Virus record (IMG/VR): IMGVR_UViG_3300028854_000020
Span: 933-64,932 of that record
Direction: 5' to 3' (one strand)
Origin: a virus
Taxonomy: Duplodnaviria; Caudoviricetes
DNA length: 64,000 nucleotides
Shown here: positions 1,941-60,016 of the stretch, piece by piece
Numbering within the stretch: position 1 is the first letter of the stretch
Layout of the letters: each line of letters opens with the position of its first letter
Translations under genes and position numbers: made by a program
The notes under the pieces: model-generated
What the model was told of the DNA's origin: nothing
What the model saw: only the letters and a program-made list of their open reading frames with translations
The model's database searches: none

Positions 1941-3098
1941 ATGAAACCAATGCCAGAGCATATCGGAGTCGGAATTACAGCAATGACTTCGTTGGAGTGC
2001 TTAGGCTCATTTAAACATGAATCTATAGGCATTTATCACAATTATTTTGTTACTGAAACTGCATGGGACTGGCCCAGCAAACCTAAACCTTCTAACATTG
2101 TTTTAGATGGTTTCTCCCCTAATCTAAATAAAGAATTACACATCGGCCATTTAAAAAATTTGGTCATTGCTTCTGCTTTAACAAATATTACATCTGCTTC
2201 ACCTGTTGCAATGTTAGGCGCAGCAAATGGAATAAACAATGGAGCGATGGAAGCATATAAAAAATGGTGTAATCTTGCAAACTACCATCCAAAAATTTAT
2301 CTTGATATAGAACTCCCTGCGCCATCAGAAAATCTTTATGATGGAGTTTCTGAATATGCAGGTTGTAAAATGTTCAACAATGTTGTAATTTACAAGTCTA
2401 CAGGCGCAAGCACATATGCAGCGCACGATTTAAGTTTTGCTAAACTTGTTGCGCCCGATTTTTATTTGACTGGACAAGAACAAAAAGAACATTTTTCTAA
2501 TTTGGGTTTGGGAACGAAGCATCTTCCAATGGGTTTGGTTCTTGGTAAAGATGGTTCTAAAATGAAAAGTACAATTAAAAAAGATGGAGATATTGCTAAC
2601 GGAATTACTGCGCAAGAATTAATTGATGAAATTTCAAAAATAATTAAACCAACACCCGATCCAATGGCTTTAATTTGGAATGTACTGGCATGGCAGTTTA
2701 ATTCTGCTTCCGTGAGCAAAAATACTATTTTGGATATAGAAAATTGGTGTAAAATTACAAGTCCGGGTATTTATATTAGTTATACTTTTGCTAAAATTCA
2801 AAAAGCATTGAGTTTTGCAAAAATAATGGGAGATAAAAATCAATTAAGTTTGGATGATGCTAAACTTTGTGGGTTTGCAAGTTATTTTCATTATTATTTG
2901 AATAAAGCAATTGAAAATAATGAACCATATTATATTGCACAATTTGCATTGTCATTATCAAAAAAATTATCTGAGATATATGATAAAAAATCTATTAAGG
3001 ATGGCACTGCTAGTTTTATATTTTCTGTGAACTATTCGCTAGACATATTGAAGCAATGTATGATATTATTAGGAATGAATGTTTTGAAAGAGATTTGA
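1941..3098 (+). CDS. argS: compact arginyl-tRNA synthetase-like protein
   Basis: FSPNLNKELHIGHLKN (HIGH), KSTGASTYAAHDL, EQKEHF, KMKS; DALR-like helical C-terminus ending ILLGM; only 385 aa. Confidence 0.75.
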   Translation: MKPMPEHIGVGITAMTSLECLGSFKHESIGIYHNYFVTETAWDWPSKPKPSNIVLDGFSPNLNKELHIGHLKNLVIASALTNITSASPVAMLGAANGINNGAMEAYKKWCNLANYHPKIYLDIELPAPSENLYDGVSEYAGCKMFNNVVIYKSTGASTYAAHDLSFAKLVAPDFYLTGQEQKEHFSNLGLGTKHLPMGLVLGKDGSKMKSTIKKDGDIANGITAQELIDEISKIIKPTPDPMALIWNVLAWQFNSASVSKNTILDIENWCKITSPGIYISYTFAKIQKALSFAKIMGDKNQLSLDDAKLCGFASYFHYYLNKAIENNEPYYIAQFALSLSKKLSEIYDKKSIKDGTASFIFSVNYSLDILKQCMILLGMNVLKEI

Positions 3099-3099
3099 T

Positions 3100-3750
3100 A
3101 TGAAACAACCAATTCACAAATTATATAAATATCCACGCTCTCTGCATTTACCCAATAGCCAAGGTATTACATCCGATGATAAGGTTTTGTCGCAAGACAT
3201 TGTTGATTCGTGGAATTGGGAGGTTGTTATTTCAGAAAAAAGAGACGGAGAAAATTTTTCTTTATATTCAGATTATTTCCATGCTCGTAGTTTGAATTTT
3301 GAACCTCATCCAAGCAGAAATAGAATTGCCGCGCTTCATTCTCGGATAGCTTATCAAATACCGACTAATTTTAGAATCTGCGGAGAAAATTTAACAGCAG
3401 TTCATTCAATAAAATATTGCAATCTCAAAGAAATTTTTGAGGTCTTTGGTATATGGAATGAGGAACAATGTTTATCTTGGGATGATACAGTTATTTTTGC
3501 TAATCTTTTAAATTTGCCAACTGTTCCTATTTTATATCAAGGAATTTGGGGAGAATCTGTAGCAAAATCAATTGTAGAAACATTAGATACATCAAAACAA
3601 GAAGGTTTTGTTGTTAGACCAACCCGCGCATTTTATTTAAATGAGTTTAATAGTGTAGTTGGGAAATGGGTAAGACATAATCATGTAATATCAACGTCAC
3701 ATTGGATTCGCCAAAAAATAGAATACAATGAGCTATCTTCTGTGCTATAA
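3100..3750 (+). CDS. RNA ligase family protein
   Basis: KYPRSLHLP, EKRDGEN (motif I), GEN, EGFVVR, KWVR. Confidence 0.85.
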   Translation: MKQPIHKLYKYPRSLHLPNSQGITSDDKVLSQDIVDSWNWEVVISEKRDGENFSLYSDYFHARSLNFEPHPSRNRIAALHSRIAYQIPTNFRICGENLTAVHSIKYCNLKEIFEVFGIWNEEQCLSWDDTVIFANLLNLPTVPILYQGIWGESVAKSIVETLDTSKQEGFVVRPTRAFYLNEFNSVVGKWVRHNHVISTSHWIRQKIEYNELSSVL

Positions 3751-21781: not shown

Positions 21782-21875
21782 AGCCCTATAGTTTAATGGC
21801 AGAACAGCGGTCTTATAAACCGTATTATCACTAGATTGGTGAATTGTCTCAGTTCGAATCTGAGTAGGGCTACCA
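21782..21875 (+). tRNA. tRNA-Ile(TAT) with long variable arm (94 nt)
   Basis: AGCCCTA/TAGGGCT acceptor, GCGGT-CTTATAA-ACCGT, 24-nt variable region containing TCACTA/TGGTGA stem, canonical T-arm, ACCA. Confidence 0.85.
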
Positions 21876-30607: not shown

Positions 30608-31729
30608 ATGACGTATTTAAATGACATTCTCGATATAAATTTTCTTGCTCAGTTGATCAAGGATGGATATATTTCACAAAAATTTCATAATGATTATCCT
30701 CTTGCTATATTAAATTATAGTAAATTGGCTCAGTTTGACGAAAAATTAGTTTGGAACAACGAAATGAATTTGTCTCGTGGGTTGATTTACAATACTGACA
30801 CGATGGAAGTTGTGGCCGTTCCTTTTCGTAAGTTTTGGAACATTTCAGACTCTCGGCATCCTGAAACTATGCCTGAAAATCTTCCGAATGAAATTCCTTT
30901 GTTTTTGGAGAAGTTGGACGGTTCGCTTGGAATTTTGTTTGAATGGGATAACTTGAATCATGTAGCAACTAGGGGTAGCTTTCATTCAGATCAAGCAGTT
31001 TGGGCAACTAACTGGCTTCGAACCACTCATCCTAATTTGCAATTGCCGAAGGAAGGCACGATACTTGCTGAAATTCTTTATAAACAAAACAAAATAGTAA
31101 TTGATTATGATTTTGAAGGTCTTGTTGTTATTGGTGCAATCAATAAGGCAACTACAAAGGAAATGAATCGTGACGATTTGAAGGTTTATTGCCGAGTGAT
31201 GGAATTGAATATTGTTCAGGAGTATAAGAAATCTTTGAACACTTGTCTTTCTGAGGATGAAAAAAATCGGGAAGGATATGTTCTTACTTATCCGTCAACT
31301 GGTATAAAGGTTAAAGTTAAATTTGAAACTTATTGTCAGTTACATAAGATTTTGACAAATTTGAACGCACATAGTATTTGGGAATTGCTGCGTGATGAAA
31401 AGTCTCAAACTATTTCTGATTGGTTGAAAGATGAAAATATGCCTGATACTTTTAAGAAGTGGGTTAAGACGGTTTGGTTTTCATTAATCGGGAAATTTGA
31501 AAATATTTTAACGGAAGCAAATCATCGCTATGTTTCTCGTCCAATGACTGATCCATTTATGCCGTATAAGGAATCTCGTAAGATTATGGCACAATATTTC
31601 ACTTTGGAAGAAAATCGTAAATATTCTGGTTTGTTGTTTGGTATGCTCGATAAGAAAAATATTGACAAATCAATTTGGAAAATGATTGAACCTGCTGGAA
31701 GTGATGTATTTCTTGTGGACGGAGAGTAA
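30608..31729 (+). CDS. T4 Rnl1-type RNA ligase
   Basis: SRGLI, PFRKFWN, EKLDGSLG, ATRGSF, EGYV, KVKVK..Y..LH. Confidence 0.9.
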   Translation: MTYLNDILDINFLAQLIKDGYISQKFHNDYPLAILNYSKLAQFDEKLVWNNEMNLSRGLIYNTDTMEVVAVPFRKFWNISDSRHPETMPENLPNEIPLFLEKLDGSLGILFEWDNLNHVATRGSFHSDQAVWATNWLRTTHPNLQLPKEGTILAEILYKQNKIVIDYDFEGLVVIGAINKATTKEMNRDDLKVYCRVMELNIVQEYKKSLNTCLSEDEKNREGYVLTYPSTGIKVKVKFETYCQLHKILTNLNAHSIWELLRDEKSQTISDWLKDENMPDTFKKWVKTVWFSLIGKFENILTEANHRYVSRPMTDPFMPYKESRKIMAQYFTLEENRKYSGLLFGMLDKKNIDKSIWKMIEPAGSDVFLVDGE

Positions 31730-35198: not shown

Positions 35199-35870
35199 AT
35201 GATTTTTTGGGGTGATCCACATGGAAATCTCGATCTTCTTCGTCGAAAGATGAAAGAGCAACATACCAAATTTCCAAATGATACACAAATTTCAGTAGGT
35301 GATAACGGGTTTGGATTCCCCAAATCTCAGAGTATTGTTTTTCCAGATTATTTTAAGATGATTCGTGGAAATCATGATTCACCAGAAGTTTGTCGTGCTC
35401 ACCCAAATTATCTTGGAGACTACGGAACAAAAGAAATTGATGGTTATAAAGTATTCTTTGTTTCGGGTGGGTGGTCAATCGATAGGCAATTTCGCAAAGA
35501 AGGGGTAAGCTGGTGGCCAGATGAAGAATTATCCATTGCAGAATTGAATATTGCTATGGAAGAATATCTTGATGTTAAACCTGACGTAATGTTAAGTCAT
35601 GACGGGCCTACTCCAGCAACACATTATATTCTTAATCGTTATGCTCTTCAAAATAATAATTATTATAGCGAAAGCAGCGTGACACCAACTAGAACCGGTC
35701 AAGCACTTTCAGCTATGTTTAGAGAATATCAACCAAAAATGTGGATTTTTGGTCATTGGCATTGTAATTTTGACAAAATAATCAATGGAACAAGATTTAT
35801 ATGTATTCCAGAACTAGAATCGATTAGGGTTGAAGATATTCTACCACTTGACAAAGATATCAAAATTTGA
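35199..35870 (+). CDS. calcineurin-like metallophosphoesterase
   Basis: GDPHG, VGD, RGNHD, SHDGP, FGHWH. Confidence 0.9.
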   Translation: MIFWGDPHGNLDLLRRKMKEQHTKFPNDTQISVGDNGFGFPKSQSIVFPDYFKMIRGNHDSPEVCRAHPNYLGDYGTKEIDGYKVFFVSGGWSIDRQFRKEGVSWWPDEELSIAELNIAMEEYLDVKPDVMLSHDGPTPATHYILNRYALQNNNYYSESSVTPTRTGQALSAMFREYQPKMWIFGHWHCNFDKIINGTRFICIPELESIRVEDILPLDKDIKI

Positions 35871-38579: not shown

Positions 38580-38930
38580 CAGAAGTCGAAAGACTTTAAT
38601 AATAGTGAGAGGAGACTAACTTTATATGTATTCGGACGCGGATTGCGATATTCCGCCGGTTCCACCAAAATATGATTTAATGTTAGACACGAAACGTCTA
38701 TACGGGACCGACCAGTTTCGACGGGTATATTATAGGGAAACGTTACTATTCATGATGTGGTTCTCGCTTCATGTAAAACAGAGAGCACCATTTATAATTG
38801 CTGCTAACCGCATCAATGGCGTTAATGAAATTGCAACCTACAATGTAGTGCGCAATCAAGTTAACGTGCCAGTTCTAGCGTAATTGCAGAACTCCGGGGA
38901 ATGGCCCACCCTGTAAAATAACGGGCCATA
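38580..38930 (+). ncRNA. ssrA: circularly permuted (two-piece) tmRNA
   Basis: Acceptor piece ends GGACGCGG..CCGCCGGTTCCACCA (38667), upstream of the coding piece starting GGGACCGACCAGTTTCGACGGG (38704); G3-U70 pair; tag frame 38800-38883 after ATAATT. Confidence 0.88.
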
Positions 38931-40296: not shown

Positions 40297-40860
40297 ATGG
40301 ATATTAATGAACTATTAATGGTAATTAAAGATATTACACCTTCTGCAATTGAAGAGTTTAATGATGTTCGTTTACCGTGTTTATTTAATTTTTGGGGAAG
40401 ATCATTAATAGAAGAGTTAGAAAACGAAGATCAAAAAACAGTTGAAATTACAAAGGCATATTCACGAGGAATCAATAATTCGTTTTTTAGACGTATTGCT
40501 GATAAGTTACCTGATTATAGTGAACACACAACAAATGGTGCAGATTATAAATATCATGATTTGTTAATTGAAGATAAAAATTCCTTTTCACATAAATCTG
40601 GTCATTGGATTGGAAATGGATTTGTAAAATGTGGAACATATTTACTTAAAAAATTTGAAGTTGACGAAACTGGTAGAATAGTAGCAGCTTTTGTTGCATT
40701 AATTATTGATCCAGATAGTGTTTGGACAGAAAGAACATTAAAAACAAATAGGTCTGTGATAGAATTTAAAATATCAGATCAACATAAGATGAATATTATT
40801 TATGGTTCTATAAAAATAAATAAAAAAAATATAAAACCAATTTTATATAAGGTGAGTTAA
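40297..40860 (+). CDS. hypothetical protein, possible PD-(D/E)xK nuclease
   Basis: GADYKYHDLLIEDKNS pattern; stop overlaps the MTase start. Confidence 0.45.
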   Translation: MDINELLMVIKDITPSAIEEFNDVRLPCLFNFWGRSLIEELENEDQKTVEITKAYSRGINNSFFRRIADKLPDYSEHTTNGADYKYHDLLIEDKNSFSHKSGHWIGNGFVKCGTYLLKKFEVDETGRIVAAFVALIIDPDSVWTERTLKTNRSVIEFKISDQHKMNIIYGSIKINKKNIKPILYKVS

Positions 40861-41741
40861 TGGCTGATCGTAAATTATCAGATATTTTTGTGGTTCCTCC
40901 AATTTCTGTATTGGACATTCGTCAAAAATATTGGAAAGATCGTAGGAAATTTTGGTTGTCGCTTGGAATACAAAGTGAATTAGGAAGAAATGAAAATTTA
41001 CTAAGTTTGTCACCATTGTTACAAATAAAACAAAAAGCAACTTCTATTTTTGACCCAGTTTTATGTGAAATAATATATAAATGGTTTTCAGGTAAAGATG
41101 ACATTGTTTTTGATCCTTTTGCTGGTGGTTCAGTTCGCGGTATTGTAGCGAGTATATTGGATAGAAATTACATTGGTATTGATTTACGAAAAGAACAAAT
41201 AGAACATAATAATTTACAAGCAAATAATCTTTGTTTAAATCATATTCCTACTTGGTTATATGGTTCTTCTATAGATATCAGTGTTGAACAAAAATATGAT
41301 TTATTTTTTACTTGTCCACCGTATTATGATTTGGAAAAATATAGCAATGATGATAAAGATTTATCAAATATGTCAGTTGAAAATTTTGAATTTACATATG
41401 AAAATATTTTAGAAAAAAGTTTAGATAAATTGGAAAATGATAGATTCGCCGCAATTGTTGTTGGTGATGTAAGAGATGAAAATGGAAATTATAGAAAATT
41501 CCCTCAAAAGACAATAAATATTTTTGAAAAATATGGATGTAAATATTATAATGATTTAATATTGTTACAGGAACCAGCAACAGCCGCAATGAGAAGTTTC
41601 AATTATATGAATTCTTCAAGAAAAATTGCCAAGGCACATCAAAATGTATTAGTATTTATTAAAGGGGATGCGAAAAAAGCAACAGAAAGATTAGAAGTAT
41701 TTCAAGATAGTAATTCGCAATATGAAAATTTTTTTATTTAG
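40860..41741 (+). CDS. DNA amino-methyltransferase (N4-C/N6-A)
   Basis: SIFDPVLCE, DPFAGGSVRG, GIDL, TCPPYYDLE. Confidence 0.85.
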   Translation: MADRKLSDIFVVPPISVLDIRQKYWKDRRKFWLSLGIQSELGRNENLLSLSPLLQIKQKATSIFDPVLCEIIYKWFSGKDDIVFDPFAGGSVRGIVASILDRNYIGIDLRKEQIEHNNLQANNLCLNHIPTWLYGSSIDISVEQKYDLFFTCPPYYDLEKYSNDDKDLSNMSVENFEFTYENILEKSLDKLENDRFAAIVVGDVRDENGNYRKFPQKTINIFEKYGCKYYNDLILLQEPATAAMRSFNYMNSSRKIAKAHQNVLVFIKGDAKKATERLEVFQDSNSQYENFFI

Positions 41742-41957
41742 GAGAAATATGAATACTTATAAAGTAACATTTGACCGTATCGATTCATCAAGCGGTGATC
41801 AATTAGTAAAAACTATTACAGCAGATAAATATAAATTTGAATCTGATCACAATGCATATATATTTTATATTAACGATATGAAATTTGCGGAAGTAATATA
41901 TGAACATATTTTATTAATTGAAGTAATTGAAGAATAAATAGCACAAGTATAAAGATT

Positions 41958-42300
41958 CTGTGATGGAGAAATAGTCCACTAGTAGAGAAAACAGTTCATA
42001 GAAATGGTTATGAAATATTTACTGGGAAAGTAGTCTCACTGATTGGTGCAACATGCGTCCGATAGCAATGTTTCGGAAGTCAGCAAAATTGATGAGTGGC
42101 AGAGGGAAATCTCATCTCACAGATAAATCTATTAATGGCGGAATAGTAATCCACCCGGAATAAAATAATTTATTGAAATGACAATAAATAAATAAGGGGA
42201 ATGTAGACGCATAGGTAGCTGGTCCCACGCGATTATCAATAGCAATGGTTTGATTAGCCTAAAAATTGTTACGTGACAGAGGGAAATCGTAACTTCATAG
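41958..42300 (+). ncRNA. tandem pair of homologous structured RNAs (41958-42122 and 42129-42300)
   Basis: Same order of stems; covarying stem GATGAG/CTCATC versus GTTACG/CGTAAC around conserved loop TGRCAGAGGGAAAT; AATAAATA upstream, terminator downstream. Confidence 0.75.
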
Positions 42301-42304
42301 TATG

Positions 42305-42334
42305 AAAAGGCAGGAGTTAATCTCTTGCCTTTTT
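42305..42334 (+). terminator. intrinsic terminator overlapping the probable nadA promoter
   Basis: AAAAGGCAGGAG-TTAAT-CTCTTGCCTTTTT; TATACT follows at 42348. Confidence 0.8.
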
Positions 42335-42369
42335 GTGTATATTTTGTTATACTTGAAATAGAGGTTTAT

Positions 42370-43458
42370 ATGGAAAACCAAATTTGTTCTCTTGAAAATT
42401 ATCTACAGTTTCCTGATAATACAATGGATAGTAGAATTGCTATAGCAAGAAAAATACTTGGTGATTCTGTAGTAATTTTAGGTCACCATTATCAGCGTGA
42501 CGAAGTTCTAAAATTTGCTGATTTTACAGGAGATAGTTTCAAACTTGCAAAAGATGGTGCAAAAACAAAGGCAAAATATATTATTTTCTGCGGAGTATAT
42601 TTTATGGCCGAAACTGCGGATATTCTTGGCCACGATCAAATTGTTATTCTACCCGATTTGAATGCTGGTTGTTCGATGGCTGATATGGCTGAAATTTCTC
42701 AAGTAGAAGCATGTTGGGAAACTTTAGAAAAAATTGGAATAACAAATGATTTAATTCCAATTACTTATATGAATTCTACCGCTGCAATTAAAGCATTTGT
42801 TGGAGAATATGGAGGATTAGTTTGCACTTCTTCTAATGCCCAAAAAGCATTTGAATGGGCGTTTGCTCGTGGCAAAAGAATTTTGTTTCTTCCAGATCAG
42901 CATCTTGGTCGTAACACTGGTTATAATATGGGAATTGCATTAAACGAAATGATTGTATATGATCAATGGAGTATTCAGGGTGGACAAAGTAAAGCAAGTT
43001 ATGATCAAAGTAAAATTATTTTATGGAAGGGTCATTGTGCAGTTCATCAGCGATTTTTACCAGATCAAGTTGATATAATTAGACAGAAGCATCCAGATAT
43101 TCAAGTAATTGTTCATCCTGAATGTAGGTTAGAGGTTTGTCTAAAAGCTGATCAAATAGGTTCTACAGAACAGTTGATCAAAATTGTAGAAGAATCTCCT
43201 ATTGGTTCTAAATTTGCAATTGGAACTGAAATTCATTTGGTTAATCGTCTTGCCAAAAAATATGCTCCGTTAGGGAAAACCATTTATAATCTTACTGATC
43301 AAGGATGTTTATGCACCACAATGTTTAGAATTACTCCACAACATTTAGCTTGGGCGCTGGAAAATTTAGTAAACGGAAATGTGGTCAATCAAATCAAGGT
43401 TCGTGATAATGTAAAGAAATGGGCCAGAGTTGCACTTGACAAAATGCTTATTTTATGA
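42370..43458 (+). CDS. nadA: quinolinate synthase
   Basis: ILGHHYQRDEV, FCGVYFMAE, AGCSMADM, YMNS, CTSSNA, CAVH, HPEC, CTTM. Confidence 0.96.
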   Translation: MENQICSLENYLQFPDNTMDSRIAIARKILGDSVVILGHHYQRDEVLKFADFTGDSFKLAKDGAKTKAKYIIFCGVYFMAETADILGHDQIVILPDLNAGCSMADMAEISQVEACWETLEKIGITNDLIPITYMNSTAAIKAFVGEYGGLVCTSSNAQKAFEWAFARGKRILFLPDQHLGRNTGYNMGIALNEMIVYDQWSIQGGQSKASYDQSKIILWKGHCAVHQRFLPDQVDIIRQKHPDIQVIVHPECRLEVCLKADQIGSTEQLIKIVEESPIGSKFAIGTEIHLVNRLAKKYAPLGKTIYNLTDQGCLCTTMFRITPQHLAWALENLVNGNVVNQIKVRDNVKKWARVALDKMLIL

Positions 43459-43740
43459 TATTAATCAAATAAGAAAGGAATATTATGACTAAACCGGTTT
43501 GGACTCAAGAAGAACTTAAAAATAAAATTGCGGAAAATCTTGATATGTGGATTGGAATTTATTTTAATAGTTCCAATGAGAGAAAAATCAAACGTTGGGT
43601 GAATTTCTAACAACAACGATTAATGAACTTGCGCCTGATTATTATGGCGATTATTTCAAGTTTTAATTAGTGGCAGATGGAATTTTCGGCCAATAGAAAC
43701 ATCTGCCGGGGCGGTGAATGCTGTATCCAATTGATTCTAA

Positions 43741-43770
43741 AGGGACGAAAATTCAATTTCGTCCCTATTT
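43741..43770 (+). terminator. intrinsic terminator
   Basis: AGGGACGAAA-TTCAAT/ATTCAA loop-TTTCGTCCCT followed by ATTT. Confidence 0.65.
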
Positions 43771-44073
43771 GGTGTTTTAAGAGGTTCGGTGATGTCTCAG
43801 TATCATTTTATTTTAAAGACCTCTTAAAACGCATTTTATGACGATAAAATAATCATATTTTAGTTGACAAACCACAACATATTTGGTATTCTATATTTGT
43901 TGGTAGGGATTGAAAGTCCTAATCTGACAAGTTGACAGGAGTGATATCTGAGTCAACATTGCATCATCGGGTTTCTACCTGTGAAATTTGGAATGGCACC
44001 GTTTTGAAGGGCATCAGACGGGCCAAATGGAATGGGAGCCATAGAAACCCACGATTTTATTTGAGGTAATAAT

Positions 44074-45066
44074 ATGAAAAGCACCGAAGTAAATCCAGTT
44101 CTGACAACGATTCGCGCTCTGTTGAAGTTCAAAAATGATACCACTATTGCTGAAATTTCTACGACTGCTGGTATTTCTCGAAAAATAGTTCTGGATGTCA
44201 TCAATCGTAATGGAAATATGGTGTGGCGTGATCGCACCAATGGAAAAATTACTCGTGTTGATCCACAGAATATTCTGTGGGGGAAATTGTGGGCAGATGG
44301 AGCATATTTTCGCATTGGTGAAGAGAATTACGGATGTGCTCATACCTTGGTATTCATCGGTCACGAAGAACTAAAAAATGATTTGCTTAAAAACGATTGG
44401 GCTGGTGGTTTGGGTGATTGCTACCCCATCAAGTATGTTCCAGATACTCCTGAAAACAGGGCAGTTATGGTTGCCAATGGTTGTATTTTTCATGATGATA
44501 TTGCTCCTACAGTTGATGATCGTTTGTGGAAGGAATAATTTAACATTTTTGAAAGAGGAATATTTTGGAAAATGAAAAACTGATTGCACCAGAACTATTG
44601 AAAGAAATCATTGCAATTCTAGCATGGAGAGCAAATTATCCACTTAACAAATTGTCGGAACTTGTTGTCCCGGCCCAAAATAATTTGAAAATGCGCGGAA
44701 AGAATGAGTTGCCACCATTGACATTCTAACCAAAATCTGATATACTAATCTTGTAGTCAGAAATGGAGGAAATTTATGATCACGCCTGACCAAACTCGTG
44801 AACTTCTTGATTTATTTCCAGATGCCGATCTATCTATCATTGAATCAATTATTTACGACAATGGTTGGTCTGGATATGAAGATTCTGCATGGTTGATCAT
44901 TTTTGAGGGTATTGATGGATCAACACAGGCTCTCGAATATTCATCTTGTTCTATGTGCGATGGGGAAACGTCTAATACATTTACTCCACGAGAAATAAAC
45001 GACTATGAAATGGAAGAACTTGTTTTACAAATGGAATCTGATATTGCTGAAAATGCTAATAGTTAA
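44074..45066 (+). CDS. hypothetical early genes: 44074-44538 (N-terminal HTH-like) and 44776-45066 (acidic)
   Basis: Each has a sigma70 promoter (43864 and 44718) and an RBS. Confidence 0.65.
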
Positions 45067-53283: not shown

Positions 53284-53348
53284 CCTGTTTGTTTTCAATG
53301 ATTTATTTTTGTTGACATTTAACCACTATTTTGGTATACTGGAACTGT

Positions 53349-54371
53349 ATGAAAAAACTATTCACTACCGAGTATGGAAGTCGTCTTTATGGTACTGCCA
53401 CGCCCACGTCTGATACGGATGTGAAGCACATTGTGCTGCCGTCTATGAATGATCTTTTGCTTGGAAAATCTCTTGTAAACAAAGTAGATAAAACCAATTC
53501 TGTAAAATTTACTAAGAATTCTGCCGAAGATATTGATGAAGAATTCATCAATGTTCAAACGTTTGCAAAGGATTTTATTGGTGGTCAAACATATGCTTTG
53601 GAAATGTGTTTTGCAGTAGATTATGATAATGCAGGTCAGATTATTCATGATCCCTTGTTCAAGGGATTTTGTCATGAACTTAGAAATATGTTTTTAACTT
53701 CAAATATGACAGCATTGATTGGATATGCTGTAAATCAGGCATCATTATATTCTTTTAAGGGTGAGAGACTCAATGCTTGCCGCGCAGCGAAAGAATTATT
53801 TGAAGAGATGATTGAAAATTTTGGTGAGGATTTTAAACCTGTTGACTGTCGTGAAATATTTGAAAATAAAGCTAAAATCATTGCTGAAAATTTTCCAAAA
53901 TATTTTTCTTTGGAAGAATATGCCATTAATCACGAGGGAATGTTGCGTCCATGTATTAAATTGTTGGAGAAGATTTTGCCATATACAAGCACGTTTAAAA
54001 CTACGCTTGGTGTGGTTAATACAAATCTCAAGAAATATGGAAGTCGAGCAGATGCAGCCTCCATCGATAATGTGGACTGGAAAGCTGTGATGCATGCCCG
54101 TAGAGTAGTGGATGAAGGTATTTCTATACTAACTGATCGAAAACTTTCCTTTCCTTTTAATAAAGAATATGTAGATTTTTTGCTTTCTATAAAAAGAGGA
54201 GAACTTCCAAGAGAAGAAGTGTTTAGTGAATTAAACTCGCGTCTTGAAATATTGAAAACGCTGGAAGCAAATTCTACTCTTCCAAAAAAATCTGTTGAAC
54301 TTTCTAATACCTTGGATGTATGGTTGCTTGAGTGGTTGCGTATATGGTATGGATTGGAATTTTCATTATGA
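53349..54371 (+). CDS. Pol-beta-family nucleotidyltransferase (phage type)
   Basis: GSRLYGTATPTSDTD, DWKAVMHARR, LLSIKRGE. Confidence 0.85.
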   Translation: MKKLFTTEYGSRLYGTATPTSDTDVKHIVLPSMNDLLLGKSLVNKVDKTNSVKFTKNSAEDIDEEFINVQTFAKDFIGGQTYALEMCFAVDYDNAGQIIHDPLFKGFCHELRNMFLTSNMTALIGYAVNQASLYSFKGERLNACRAAKELFEEMIENFGEDFKPVDCREIFENKAKIIAENFPKYFSLEEYAINHEGMLRPCIKLLEKILPYTSTFKTTLGVVNTNLKKYGSRADAASIDNVDWKAVMHARRVVDEGISILTDRKLSFPFNKEYVDFLLSIKRGELPREEVFSELNSRLEILKTLEANSTLPKKSVELSNTLDVWLLEWLRIWYGLEFSL

Positions 54372-58591: not shown

Positions 58592-58684
58592 AAACATAAA
58601 CCGTTTATTTTCAATGGTTTATGTTTTATTTTATTGTTGACTTTTAATTTTAATTTTGGTATACTTTTAATAGTGAGGGAAGAG

Positions 58685-60016
58685 ATGACAACTCGTGAGA
58701 ATGCAAATTTCGTGATGGAGAAACTTGAAAATGCTGGATTTAAAGCATTTTTAGTTGGTGGCGCAGTGAGAAATTTATTGTTGGGATTGAATCCTCATGA
58801 TCTGGACCTCGCAACCAGCGCAAATCCAACTCAAGTTGCAACGTTGTTCCCAAATAGCAAATTTGTAGGTGAAAATTTCGGTGTATCTTTGGTTAATATC
58901 GAAGATGATCAGTTTGAAGTTGCTACTTTTCGTCTTGATGCAGCGTTTACTGCAACTTCTGATGGTCGGCACCCCGATGAAGTAAAATTTACCACTTCTG
59001 CCGAAGAAGATTGCCAACGAAGAGATTTTACGTGCAATGCATTATTTATGGATAGGCATGGCAAAGTATTTGATTTTGTTGATGGTGTTGCAGATATCAA
59101 TAATAAAGTTTTGCGATGTGTTGGCAATCCACTTGATCGTTTTCGTGAGGATAGTTTGCGAATGCTTCGTGCTGTAAGATTTTGTGCTTGTCTTGATTTT
59201 ACAATGGATAAGGAAACAAAGGTCGCGGTTGTTGCTTTGGCGCATACAGTTAAAAATCTCCCCGCAGAGCGCGTTGCCAGCGAACTTAGCAGAATGTTGA
59301 CAAGTGGACACGCCGATGTTGCCTTTGATCTGTTGCTGGAAACTGGTTTGGCTGCTGTTGTTATTCCGGAACTTTGTGACTTTGTTGGTTGTGAGCATAA
59401 TTCCAATTTTCATCCAGAGGGAGACGTTGCTAATCATGTTCGTTTGCTGCTTGCTGGTTTGGAGAAGGGTTGTAGTTTGACTCTTGCTCTCAGCGTACTT
59501 TTGCATGATGTTGCGAAACCAAAGACTCGTCGTTTGAATAAGGATGGAAAGACACAGTTTCTTGGTCACGAAACAGTTGGTGCAGCTATGGCCGAAGATA
59601 TCTTGCATCGGTTGAAGTTTAGTAATGACGTAATTAAGACTGTTGTTAGTCATGTAAGGAACCACATGAAGTTTTTCTGCACTCGACAGATGAAGCGTAG
59701 CACTCTTATGAGGTTTTTGCGCACGGATAATTTTCAGGAACTTTTGGCACTTGGTAAGTTGGATGTTGCTGCAAGCAATAAGGATTTCAGCGACGTTGAT
59801 TTTGTTGAGAGGTTCTTGAAGGAAAACGCCGATGAATTGAAGGCGGATCGTCTTGTTAACGGTGATGATTTGGTTGCTATGGGTTTTGTTCCCGGCCCCA
59901 ATTTCAAGGTATTGCTGGAACAGGTAGAGACGGCTCAGTTTGAAGGCAAGTTTACAACTCGCGAAGGGGCGCTGAATTTCCTTCGGAATAAAGCGCCCCG
60001 AAAAATGAAGGGATAG
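58685..60016 (+). CDS. cca: CCA tRNA nucleotidyltransferase with HD domain
   Basis: LVGGAVR, DLDLAT, EVATFR, RRDFT.NA, RFREDSLRMLRAVRF, HPEGDV, LLHDVAKP. Confidence 0.92.
   Translation: MTTRENANFVMEKLENAGFKAFLVGGAVRNLLLGLNPHDLDLATSANPTQVATLFPNSKFVGENFGVSLVNIEDDQFEVATFRLDAAFTATSDGRHPDEVKFTTSAEEDCQRRDFTCNALFMDRHGKVFDFVDGVADINNKVLRCVGNPLDRFREDSLRMLRAVRFCACLDFTMDKETKVAVVALAHTVKNLPAERVASELSRMLTSGHADVAFDLLLETGLAAVVIPELCDFVGCEHNSNFHPEGDVANHVRLLLAGLEKGCSLTLALSVLLHDVAKPKTRRLNKDGKTQFLGHETVGAAMAEDILHRLKFSNDVIKTVVSHVRNHMKFFCTRQMKRSTLMRFLRTDNFQELLALGKLDVAASNKDFSDVDFVERFLKENADELKADRLVNGDDLVAMGFVPGPNFKVLLEQVETAQFEGKFTTREGALNFLRNKAPRKMKG

Follow-up and report, generated by a model that had tools for sequence, protein, structure and literature searches.

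Two related RNA units lie in a 64,000-nt stretch of phage DNA (the window), taken from an IMG/VR virus record of 64.9 kb (bases 933-64932). They occupy a 432-nt gap between an open reading frame (ORF) of 71 aa (41722-41937) and nadA (42370-43458, + strand), which encodes quinolinate synthase (Pfam NadA, E 8e-100), and all genes near the units are encoded on the plus strand. The core of the first unit spans 41958-42122 (+) and is followed by an A/U-rich linker of 7 nt (42123-42129, +) and by the second unit (42130-42299, +). An intrinsic terminator-like hairpin of 17 pairs with a T run is located 3' of the second unit (42300-42338, +); one such element was found where 0.3 were expected, in agreement with the strong terminator proposed in the first-pass annotation of this DNA. 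The DnaB-like helicase of the window finds its closest GenBank matches, at 45-48% identity, in helicases of phages of 280-490 kb. The window further encodes an RNA ligase of the T4 type (PF09511, E 2e-9), a second RNA ligase (PF09414, E 1e-27), RlaP, a CCA-adding enzyme and a ribonucleotide reductase.

The first unit (type A) is closed by helix P1 (41958-41963 with 42117-42122), as derived from the covariance model and from compensatory pairs. P1 encloses a long P3 arm with an outer part (41979-41986 with 42018-42025) and an inner part (41995-42001 with 42008-42014), P4 (42039-42044 with 42078-42083), P4a (42059-42062 with 42073-42076, loop UAGCAAUGUU) and P5 (42091-42096 with 42111-42116, loop UGGCAGAGGGAAAU), all on the plus strand. 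The second unit (type B) shares this fold. The annotation had described two diverged units with one layout, and both were found at the positions it gave and could be aligned over their whole length. Its closing stem for the first unit, CTGTGA/TCACAG, is retained, while CTAT/ATAG in the second proved too short and is replaced by TATTAA/TTCATA, which contains one mismatch.

To compare the two units, a covariance model was built from the first unit alone, using the helices of the annotation. It recovers the second unit with 72.2 bits (E 1.6e-15); elsewhere in the 64 kb it returns only two matches, with E 0.31 and 1.1. By sequence alone (nhmmer) the two units match with 25.0 bits, so that much of the model's score is contributed by shared pairing. 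In the two-unit alignment, both sides change in 15 of the 40 pairs and 93.7% of cells pair; sliding the partners by 1-3 columns leaves 0-2 pairs in which both sides have changed. Identity is higher in unpaired columns (76%, 63/83) than in paired ones (51%, 40/79). Single-sequence folding energies are unremarkable against shuffles (z -1.42 and +0.06 for the window units), and the common fold is weak in the second unit, at -12.8 kcal/mol versus an optimum of -30.2. Among the unpaired columns of the two window units, a search for conserved pseudoknots of at least four pairs found none.

Homologues were sought by way of the helicase, which led to 48 related IMG/VR loci; the two-unit model was then applied to the complete records. 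The RNA was found in two of these 48 phage records, as three units with 91-113 bits. G163, a 16-kb contig whose helicase is 74% identical, carries a tandem pair (112.9 and 91.4 bits), and G162 (70 kb, helicase 80% identical) carries a single unit (106.8 bits). A five-unit model run over 50 records returned the five known units at 134-179 bits; the remaining matches, at 10-16 bits, were rejected. Among the rejected candidates were a match in G180 (15.9 bits) inside an ORF of 322 aa and matches in G207 and G195 (13.9 bits) that lack the conserved loops. The close relative G161 (helicase 80% identical) is without the RNA, which is therefore dispensable.

Broader searches yielded no further members. 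In IMG/VR, a scan for a loop 15-mer produced 106 stretches, all by chance; a two-loop pattern gave 27 stretches, none confirmed by model R2; and a core pattern fitting all five units picked out just the G162 and G163 contigs in a scan that did not include the record of the window. The two-loop pattern gave at least 116 stretches in metagenome contigs, and R2 found no unit in 100 and 16 of them. A linker-plus-loop pattern gave one stretch, which is no homologue. Queries of IMG/VR with single proteins, NadA and the AAA protein, returned no matches; this method also missed the nadA of G161 (82% identical). The RNA was not found at 23 methyltransferase loci and in 5 whole records, at 80 acidobacterial nadA loci, by the model in 5 and 151 Acidobacteriaceae genomes, or by the pattern with one mismatch in 401 Acidobacteriota genomes. 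A blastn comparison with GenBank phages gave 8 records with chance matches of 27-46 nt only. The family as known is small, with five units in three contigs.

Degenerate pieces resembling the 3' part of a unit are present directly upstream of the first intact unit in both relatives. The G162 piece (L409 10670-10699) resembles the last loop plus the 3' strand of P1, and the G163 piece lies at L408 ~10578-10523 on the minus strand; in G163, AUAGCAAUG is found inside the 71-aa ORF. These pieces, which nhmmer places at just E 14 and E 3, may hint at turnover of the array.

With five units aligned, covariation becomes extensive. The stored structure contains 30 compensatory pairs among its 40, and pairing extends to 93.4% of cells; none of 500 shuffles reached this, and slid controls gave 4-10 compensatory pairs. 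The refined structure has 33 compensatory pairs out of 45, with 94.6% of 221 cells paired (shuffles 0/500, slid controls 4-9). The alignments A5 and A6 were fitted to the structure of the model and are biased towards it. When RNAalifold was applied to the five-unit alignment, all helices were kept except the small UGG/CCA hairpin, which was replaced by a long-range helix absent from the annotation's list. In this helix, three nucleotides of the small-hairpin loop (GNG) pair with the linker 3' of P3 (CNC); in the first unit of the window these are GAG at 41966-41968 and CUC at 42035-42037 (+). In addition, UA (41972-41973) pairs with UA (42031-42032, +). The long-range helix reads GAG/CUC in one unit, GCG/CGC in three and AUG/CAU in one, so that 15 of 15 cells are paired and two of the three pairs are compensatory. 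It emerged only when five units were aligned, and the refined structure counts it as a pseudoknot beside a P2 of two pairs. Since it lies outside the model from which the alignments were made, it provides the most independent evidence of covariation. The 'n' positions of the conserved linker GAAnGTAGnCnCA are explained by it as well, because they are paired with the small-hairpin loop. Apart from the TGG/CCA hairpin, which never covaries and is broken in one relative (UGA/CCU), the helix list of the annotation is supported, and its claim of selection on RNA structure is borne out by compensatory pairs in the two-unit as well as the five-unit alignment.

The alignment thus shows a P1-closed junction of the long P3 arm, a P4-P4a arm and the P5 hairpin, with the helix between loop and linker in addition. 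A U.G pair is invariant in all five units, which fixes the plus strand as the sense of the RNA. Conservation is concentrated outside the helices: 42 of 115 unpaired columns are invariant versus 11 of 80 paired ones, and across all 10 unit pairs identity amounts to 67-85% in unpaired and 42-63% in paired columns. Conserved single-stranded elements are found in P3 (AAAACAG), the linker (AAWGUAGWC), the P4 loop (CAYGCG), the P4a loop (AGCAAUG), 5' of P5 (AMAAUU) and in the P5 loop (GUGRCA-N2-3-GGG). Where an RNA of complex fold keeps many unpaired nucleotides invariant, it usually turns out to be a ribozyme, a riboswitch or the core of an RNA-protein machine. As far as sequence conservation can tell, the pattern points to a specific partner (a protein, a small molecule or another RNA) or to catalysis.

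Two types of unit can be distinguished. Type A comprises the first unit of the window, G163 unit A and the G162 unit, and type B the second unit of the window and G163 unit B. The latter two share the last-loop sequence GUGACA, CCACCC and the 16-mer GGGGAAUGUAGACGCA, and the linker between the G163 units is likewise 7 nt long. As both types are present in the window and in G163, the duplication predates the split of these phages.

The RNA matches no recognised family, as the annotation had stated. At the gathering score, no family of Rfam 15 was found on the window units; at E<=10, the matches touching the units within 41700-42500 were terminator-driven or far below threshold, and at E<=5 none of 11 matches at the loci of the relatives overlaps a unit. 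Self-cleaving ribozymes (hammerhead, twister, hatchet, pistol, HDV-like, hairpin) gave no match at E<=10 in the window or at E<=5 in the relatives. In the first unit, GAUGAG forms one strand of a stem, and the second unit does not conserve it. Literature searches, at the level of main texts, on phage circular RNAs, jumbo-phage non-coding RNAs (ncRNAs) and acidobacterial phage nadA turned up no account of the RNA. Together with the three further covarying homologues in G162 and G163, these searches identify the RNA as a real, new, covariation-supported family.

A tandem RNA in front of nadA is suggestive of a riboswitch, in particular because the host copies of the gene carry tandem NAD+-I riboswitches. 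With NadA of Acidobacteriaceae the phage protein shares 68-75% identity, and an acidobacterial name is attached to 79 of the 80 best loci kept. The NAD+-I riboswitch (RF03013) was found directly upstream of nadA in all 15 host loci scanned (29 matches), with two domains in 14 loci and one in the remaining locus. This riboswitch is reported to occur exclusively upstream of nadA (PMC6859854) and to contain the ACANCCCC bulge in each of its domains (PMC7297122). The phage units resemble the riboswitch in that two similar units stand in tandem before an acidobacterial-type nadA and in that the P4/P4a stem has an asymmetric 5' internal loop. On the other hand, NAD+-I domains are bulged stem-loops of ~50 nt, whereas the phage units are ~165 nt long with five helices, and the ribosome-binding site lies outside the second unit. 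The ACANCCCC bulge is absent from both units, where CAACAUGCG and CCCACGCG stand instead; the internal loops of the units read GGUGCAACAUGCGU and GGUCCCACGCGAUU. No match to RF03013 (gathering score 37.5 bits) was obtained at E<=10 in the 64.9-kb record, which leaves the NAD-type ligands considered in the annotation without support.

Gene order separates the RNA from nadA. In the window, the order is exonuclease, ORF, methylase, 71-aa ORF, two RNA units, terminator and nadA, with the AAA gene further on. In G163 the exonuclease is followed by two ORFs, two RNA units, a small ORF and, further on, the AAA gene, and in G162 by one RNA unit, a hairpin with a T run, a convergent gene and, further on, the AAA gene; neither contig has nadA in this region. 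In G161 (360 kb), conversely, the exonuclease, three ORFs and nadA (81.6% identical) precede the AAA gene without any RNA. A search of this interval with filters off gave 6.3 bits at best, and the G161 nadA starts 44 nt after the preceding ORF. Only one of the three RNA-bearing contigs thus has nadA adjoining the RNA, and the tie to nadA suggested in the annotation does not hold. Nor is control of nadA by terminator read-through supported, since the G162 unit faces a gene on the other strand; in the window, no antiterminator pairing and no pairing that would disrupt the terminator core was seen. Because RNA and nadA occur apart, the RNA is a gene of its own in a variable spot of the replication module, and its adjacency to nadA, as judged from these gene orders, is accidental. 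A tandem-aptamer riboswitch or leader that senses NAD+ or a related compound, controls nadA through the terminator and stands in for the NAD+-I riboswitch of the host would account for the position of the RNA immediately before nadA, from which a terminator separates it, for the acidobacterial type of NadA with its RF03013-bearing host loci and for the CAACAU in the internal loop of the first unit. Lacking the NAD+-I match and bulge, and already contradicted by RNA without nadA, nadA without RNA and the convergent gene behind the G162 unit, this explanation is highly improbable. The locus may serve as a warning case, in which an apparent riboswitch before nadA turned out under comparative genomics to be a matter of accidental adjacency.

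Both phage copies of nadA (window 42370-43458; G161 L412 2723-3814, minus strand) are without the tandem NAD+-I riboswitch. This suggests an acidobacterial host and a loss of the riboswitch when nadA was captured, as far as can be read from the sequences.

Expression was assessed with Logan contigs of four peat metatranscriptome runs from four studies, mapped to 40500-44500. Neither the level nor the strand nor the true ends of an RNA can be taken from such contigs, and parts of the locus without cover (the second unit, the terminator and most of the flank) carry no meaning. Sampled words of 41500-43000 were present at 0.84-1.00 in 16 peat DNA runs, 13 of them flagged as possible sources, and at 0.08-0.20 in the four RNA runs; the peat habitat is taken from run labels only. 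The first unit is covered by RNA contigs in three of the four metatranscriptome runs, which is evidence of its transcription. The X17 contig (198 nt, depth 31.4) reads 41968-42120 and then 41953-41997, the X19 contig (205 nt, depth 39.8) reads 41990-42129 and then 41955-42019, and the X20 contig is linear (152 nt, 41967-42118). X18 has a nadA contig and none on the first unit. All contigs on the first unit are 100% identical to the window; those on neighbouring genes have depths of 2-6, although contig depth cannot rank genes.

The X17 and X19 contigs each consist of a cycle plus a 30-letter overlap, as expected of a circular path in a 31-mer graph, the cycles measuring 168 and 175 nt. Their head-to-tail joints place the RNA of the first unit at 41955-42129 (+). 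The X19 joint connects C42129, the last base of the linker, to A41955. At the X17 joint, AGAU occurs at both ends and leaves an ambiguity of four letters; one of the possible readings links G42122, with which P1 ends, to A41955. The joints were thus obtained in two of four RNA runs and in two studies, and contigs cannot separate a circle from a head-to-tail artefact or a DNA variant. The ends of the RNA are thus found at the base of the predicted closing helix, which lends independent support to the fold. In nature, the first unit is produced as a separate molecule, which may be circular.

Below P1, and separated from it by a 3-nt bulge, AGAUU (41953-41957) can pair with AAUCU (42126-42130, +) as helix P0. 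Its G-C pair is replaced by A-U in G162 (AAAUU/AAUUU), and P0 is weak in G163 unit A as judged from folds and flank duplexes. An ORF without end on a circle of 168 or 175 nt, similar to that of DRT2, was considered and rejected, as three rounds of the circle bring 6-12 stops in every frame. In a 50-nt X17 contig (depth 6.7) a sequencing adapter is joined at 41968, and the X20 contig starts at 41967. These ends at 41967/41968, inside the GAG of the long-range helix, may reflect a frequent fragment end, a stop of the reverse transcriptase, a cleavage site or copies of one molecule.

The annotation had placed a late promoter motif before the units; the motif lies at 41947-41954. A promoter function is not supported: the RNA contigs already start at 41953 and 41955, in or beside the motif; the motif TATAAATA is frequent in the AT-rich window (8 times on the plus and 10 times on the minus strand); and the relatives do not conserve it. 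A conserved AUUC, of which A41955 is the first base, precedes P1 in the first unit of each of the three phages. In G163, the stop codon of the upstream ORF lies 0-3 nt before this AUUC, which leaves no room for a promoter between ORF and unit and would imply excision of the RNA from a longer transcript. In the window, the motif AG|AU is found at both ends of the first unit; the end motif on the 3' side is not conserved in the relatives.

In a small clade of giant peat phages, the units of ~165-175 nt occupy a variable site flanked by the genes of the DnaQ-like exonuclease and the AAA protein. The explanation that we favour, with some reserve, is that they are two paralogous genes of a new family of structured phage ncRNAs that stand alone and are excised at the foot of the closing helix, their ends probably being joined. 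The RNA would be cut from a longer transcript at A/U-rich single-stranded sites flanking the closing helix, marked in the window by AG|AU on both sides. The 5' site (R-N|A-U-U) would fit the preference of RNase E. Such cuts would leave a 5'-phosphate and a 3'-OH, the substrates of ATP-dependent RNA ligases, and one of the two ATP-type RNA ligases of the phage could join the ends held by P1 into a circle. Joining into a circle would protect the RNA and explain its persistence. The joined RNA may then act in trans by binding a protein or a ligand within the RNA-repair and tRNA-centred biology of the phage; as a reading of gene content, neighbourhood and gene repertoire point loosely to RNA metabolism. 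Against this explanation stand the fitting of the alignments to the model, folding energies no better than those of shuffles, joints that lie 7 nt apart and the 4-letter microhomology (AGAT) in one of them. The stronger version, in which the folded RNA is covalently circularised by a ligase of the phage or by its own catalysis and persists, within infected cells or in the environment, as a nuclease-resistant circle, can be put forward only tentatively and is more doubtful than the favoured explanation as a whole.

How the ends came to be joined can be read in other ways. The first unit might be a stable linear small RNA, with joints produced by template switching on an abundant RNA or derived from rare DNA variants in which the unit is duplicated. 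The microhomology at the X17 joint fits template switching of the reverse transcriptase as well as a tandem duplication in DNA, a cyclic contig needs few joint-spanning reads, the joints are 7 nt apart and the X20 contig is linear. However, joints were obtained in two runs of two studies, both compatible with a 5' end at A41955 in the conserved AUUC, and the phage has two RNA ligases; the version with DNA variants would need two different exact duplications of the first unit. A linear RNA is therefore possible, though it does not seem likely to us. Less plausible still is that each unit is a ribozyme that cuts its own borders and rejoins the ends in the manner of hairpin-ribozyme satellites, which would make it a viroid- or retrozyme-like element within a DNA phage. 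Head-to-tail joints exactly at the unit borders in two studies, AG|AU at both ends in the window, the many invariant unpaired nucleotides, the tandem arrangement, the lack of room for a promoter in G163 and, weakly (E 14 and 3), the degenerate partial units upstream in G162 and G163 would all suit such an element. Yet known self-cleaving ribozymes gave no match at E<=10, the 3' end motifs are not conserved in the relatives and the two joints differ. Moreover, no RNA-only replication is needed, since the stretch 41500-43000, in which the locus lies, is represented in the 16 DNA runs by 0.84-1.00 of its sampled words.

That the pair is a decaying tandem DNA repeat without function is scarcely credible. 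The small size of the family, its absence from G161 and the degenerate remnants nearby might be read in this way, but compensated changes in stems around constant loops already contradict it, both paralogue types are kept in two phages, and the RNA is present in RNA libraries.

The phage RNA can be compared with known RNA systems. ROOL and GOLLD are orphan complex RNAs of roughly 500-800 nt that are tied to phages and tRNA clusters and are contained in Rfam. The phage RNA is similar in being phage-borne and richly structured, in occurring in genomes with tRNA genes and in having no fixed downstream gene; unlike ROOL and GOLLD, its units have no match in Rfam 15. In type III toxin-antitoxin systems, ToxI-type repeats of ~36 nt are followed by a terminator and the toxin gene. 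The order of tandem RNA repeats, terminator and gene is the same at the present locus, but the phage repeats are ~170 nt long and folded, and the downstream gene is a genuine nadA and a different one in the relatives. Y RNA/YrlA with Ro60 is similar in that the small RNA has a closing stem and the genome many RNA-repair genes. Ro60 (TROVE, PF05731) had no matches in the record, a genome fragment, in which RtcB is likewise absent, and the phage units had no Rfam match to Y RNA. A small ncRNA found end-joined, with a closing helix that juxtaposes its ends, is also reminiscent of DucS, a bacterial ncRNA reported to have linear and circular forms (PMC10504365), and of circular satellites with hairpin or hammerhead ribozymes. 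The phage RNA has no sequence or motif relation to these, no ribozyme motif was found in it, it is encoded in phage DNA, and its circle is known from contigs alone.

New classes of complex RNA are rare and often open new biochemistry. The phage RNA offers a structure backed by covariation, expression in nature and the testable oddity of joined ends. It may be a natural substrate or partner of the phage RNA-repair enzymes, for which, to our knowledge, the mending of cleaved tRNA is the only well-known role. An excised circle, if true, would make the RNA the first class of structured circular ncRNA known to occur naturally in a bacteriophage.

Further features of the window concern RNA metabolism. 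A dense set of RNA-repair and tRNA genes is encoded at 1941-3098, 3100-3750, 30608-31729, 35199-35870, 53331-54371 and 58634-60016; its members are the PF09414 and PF09511 RNA ligases (the two ligase genes lie at 3100-3750 and 30608-31729), a metallophosphoesterase, RlaP, a CCA-adding enzyme with an HD domain and a short arginyl-tRNA-synthetase-like protein. ARAGORN and Rfam together identified six tRNAs and one permuted tmRNA in the window, none of them at 41950-42300. The permuted (two-piece) tmRNA gene (38601-38841, +) lies 3 kb upstream of the RNA units; it matches RF04321 with 63 bits against a gathering score of 47 and is not reported by ARAGORN. A tRNA-Ile with anticodon TAT (21782-21875, +) is 94 nt long according to ARAGORN, compared with 72-77 nt for the other five tRNAs, and may contain an insertion or intron. 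Finally, the ~600 nt 3' of nadA (43459-44073) contain ORFs of just 41-54 aa, and an X17 RNA contig (43725-44038, depth 4.3) is located inside this stretch, which could represent another non-coding transcript or small genes.
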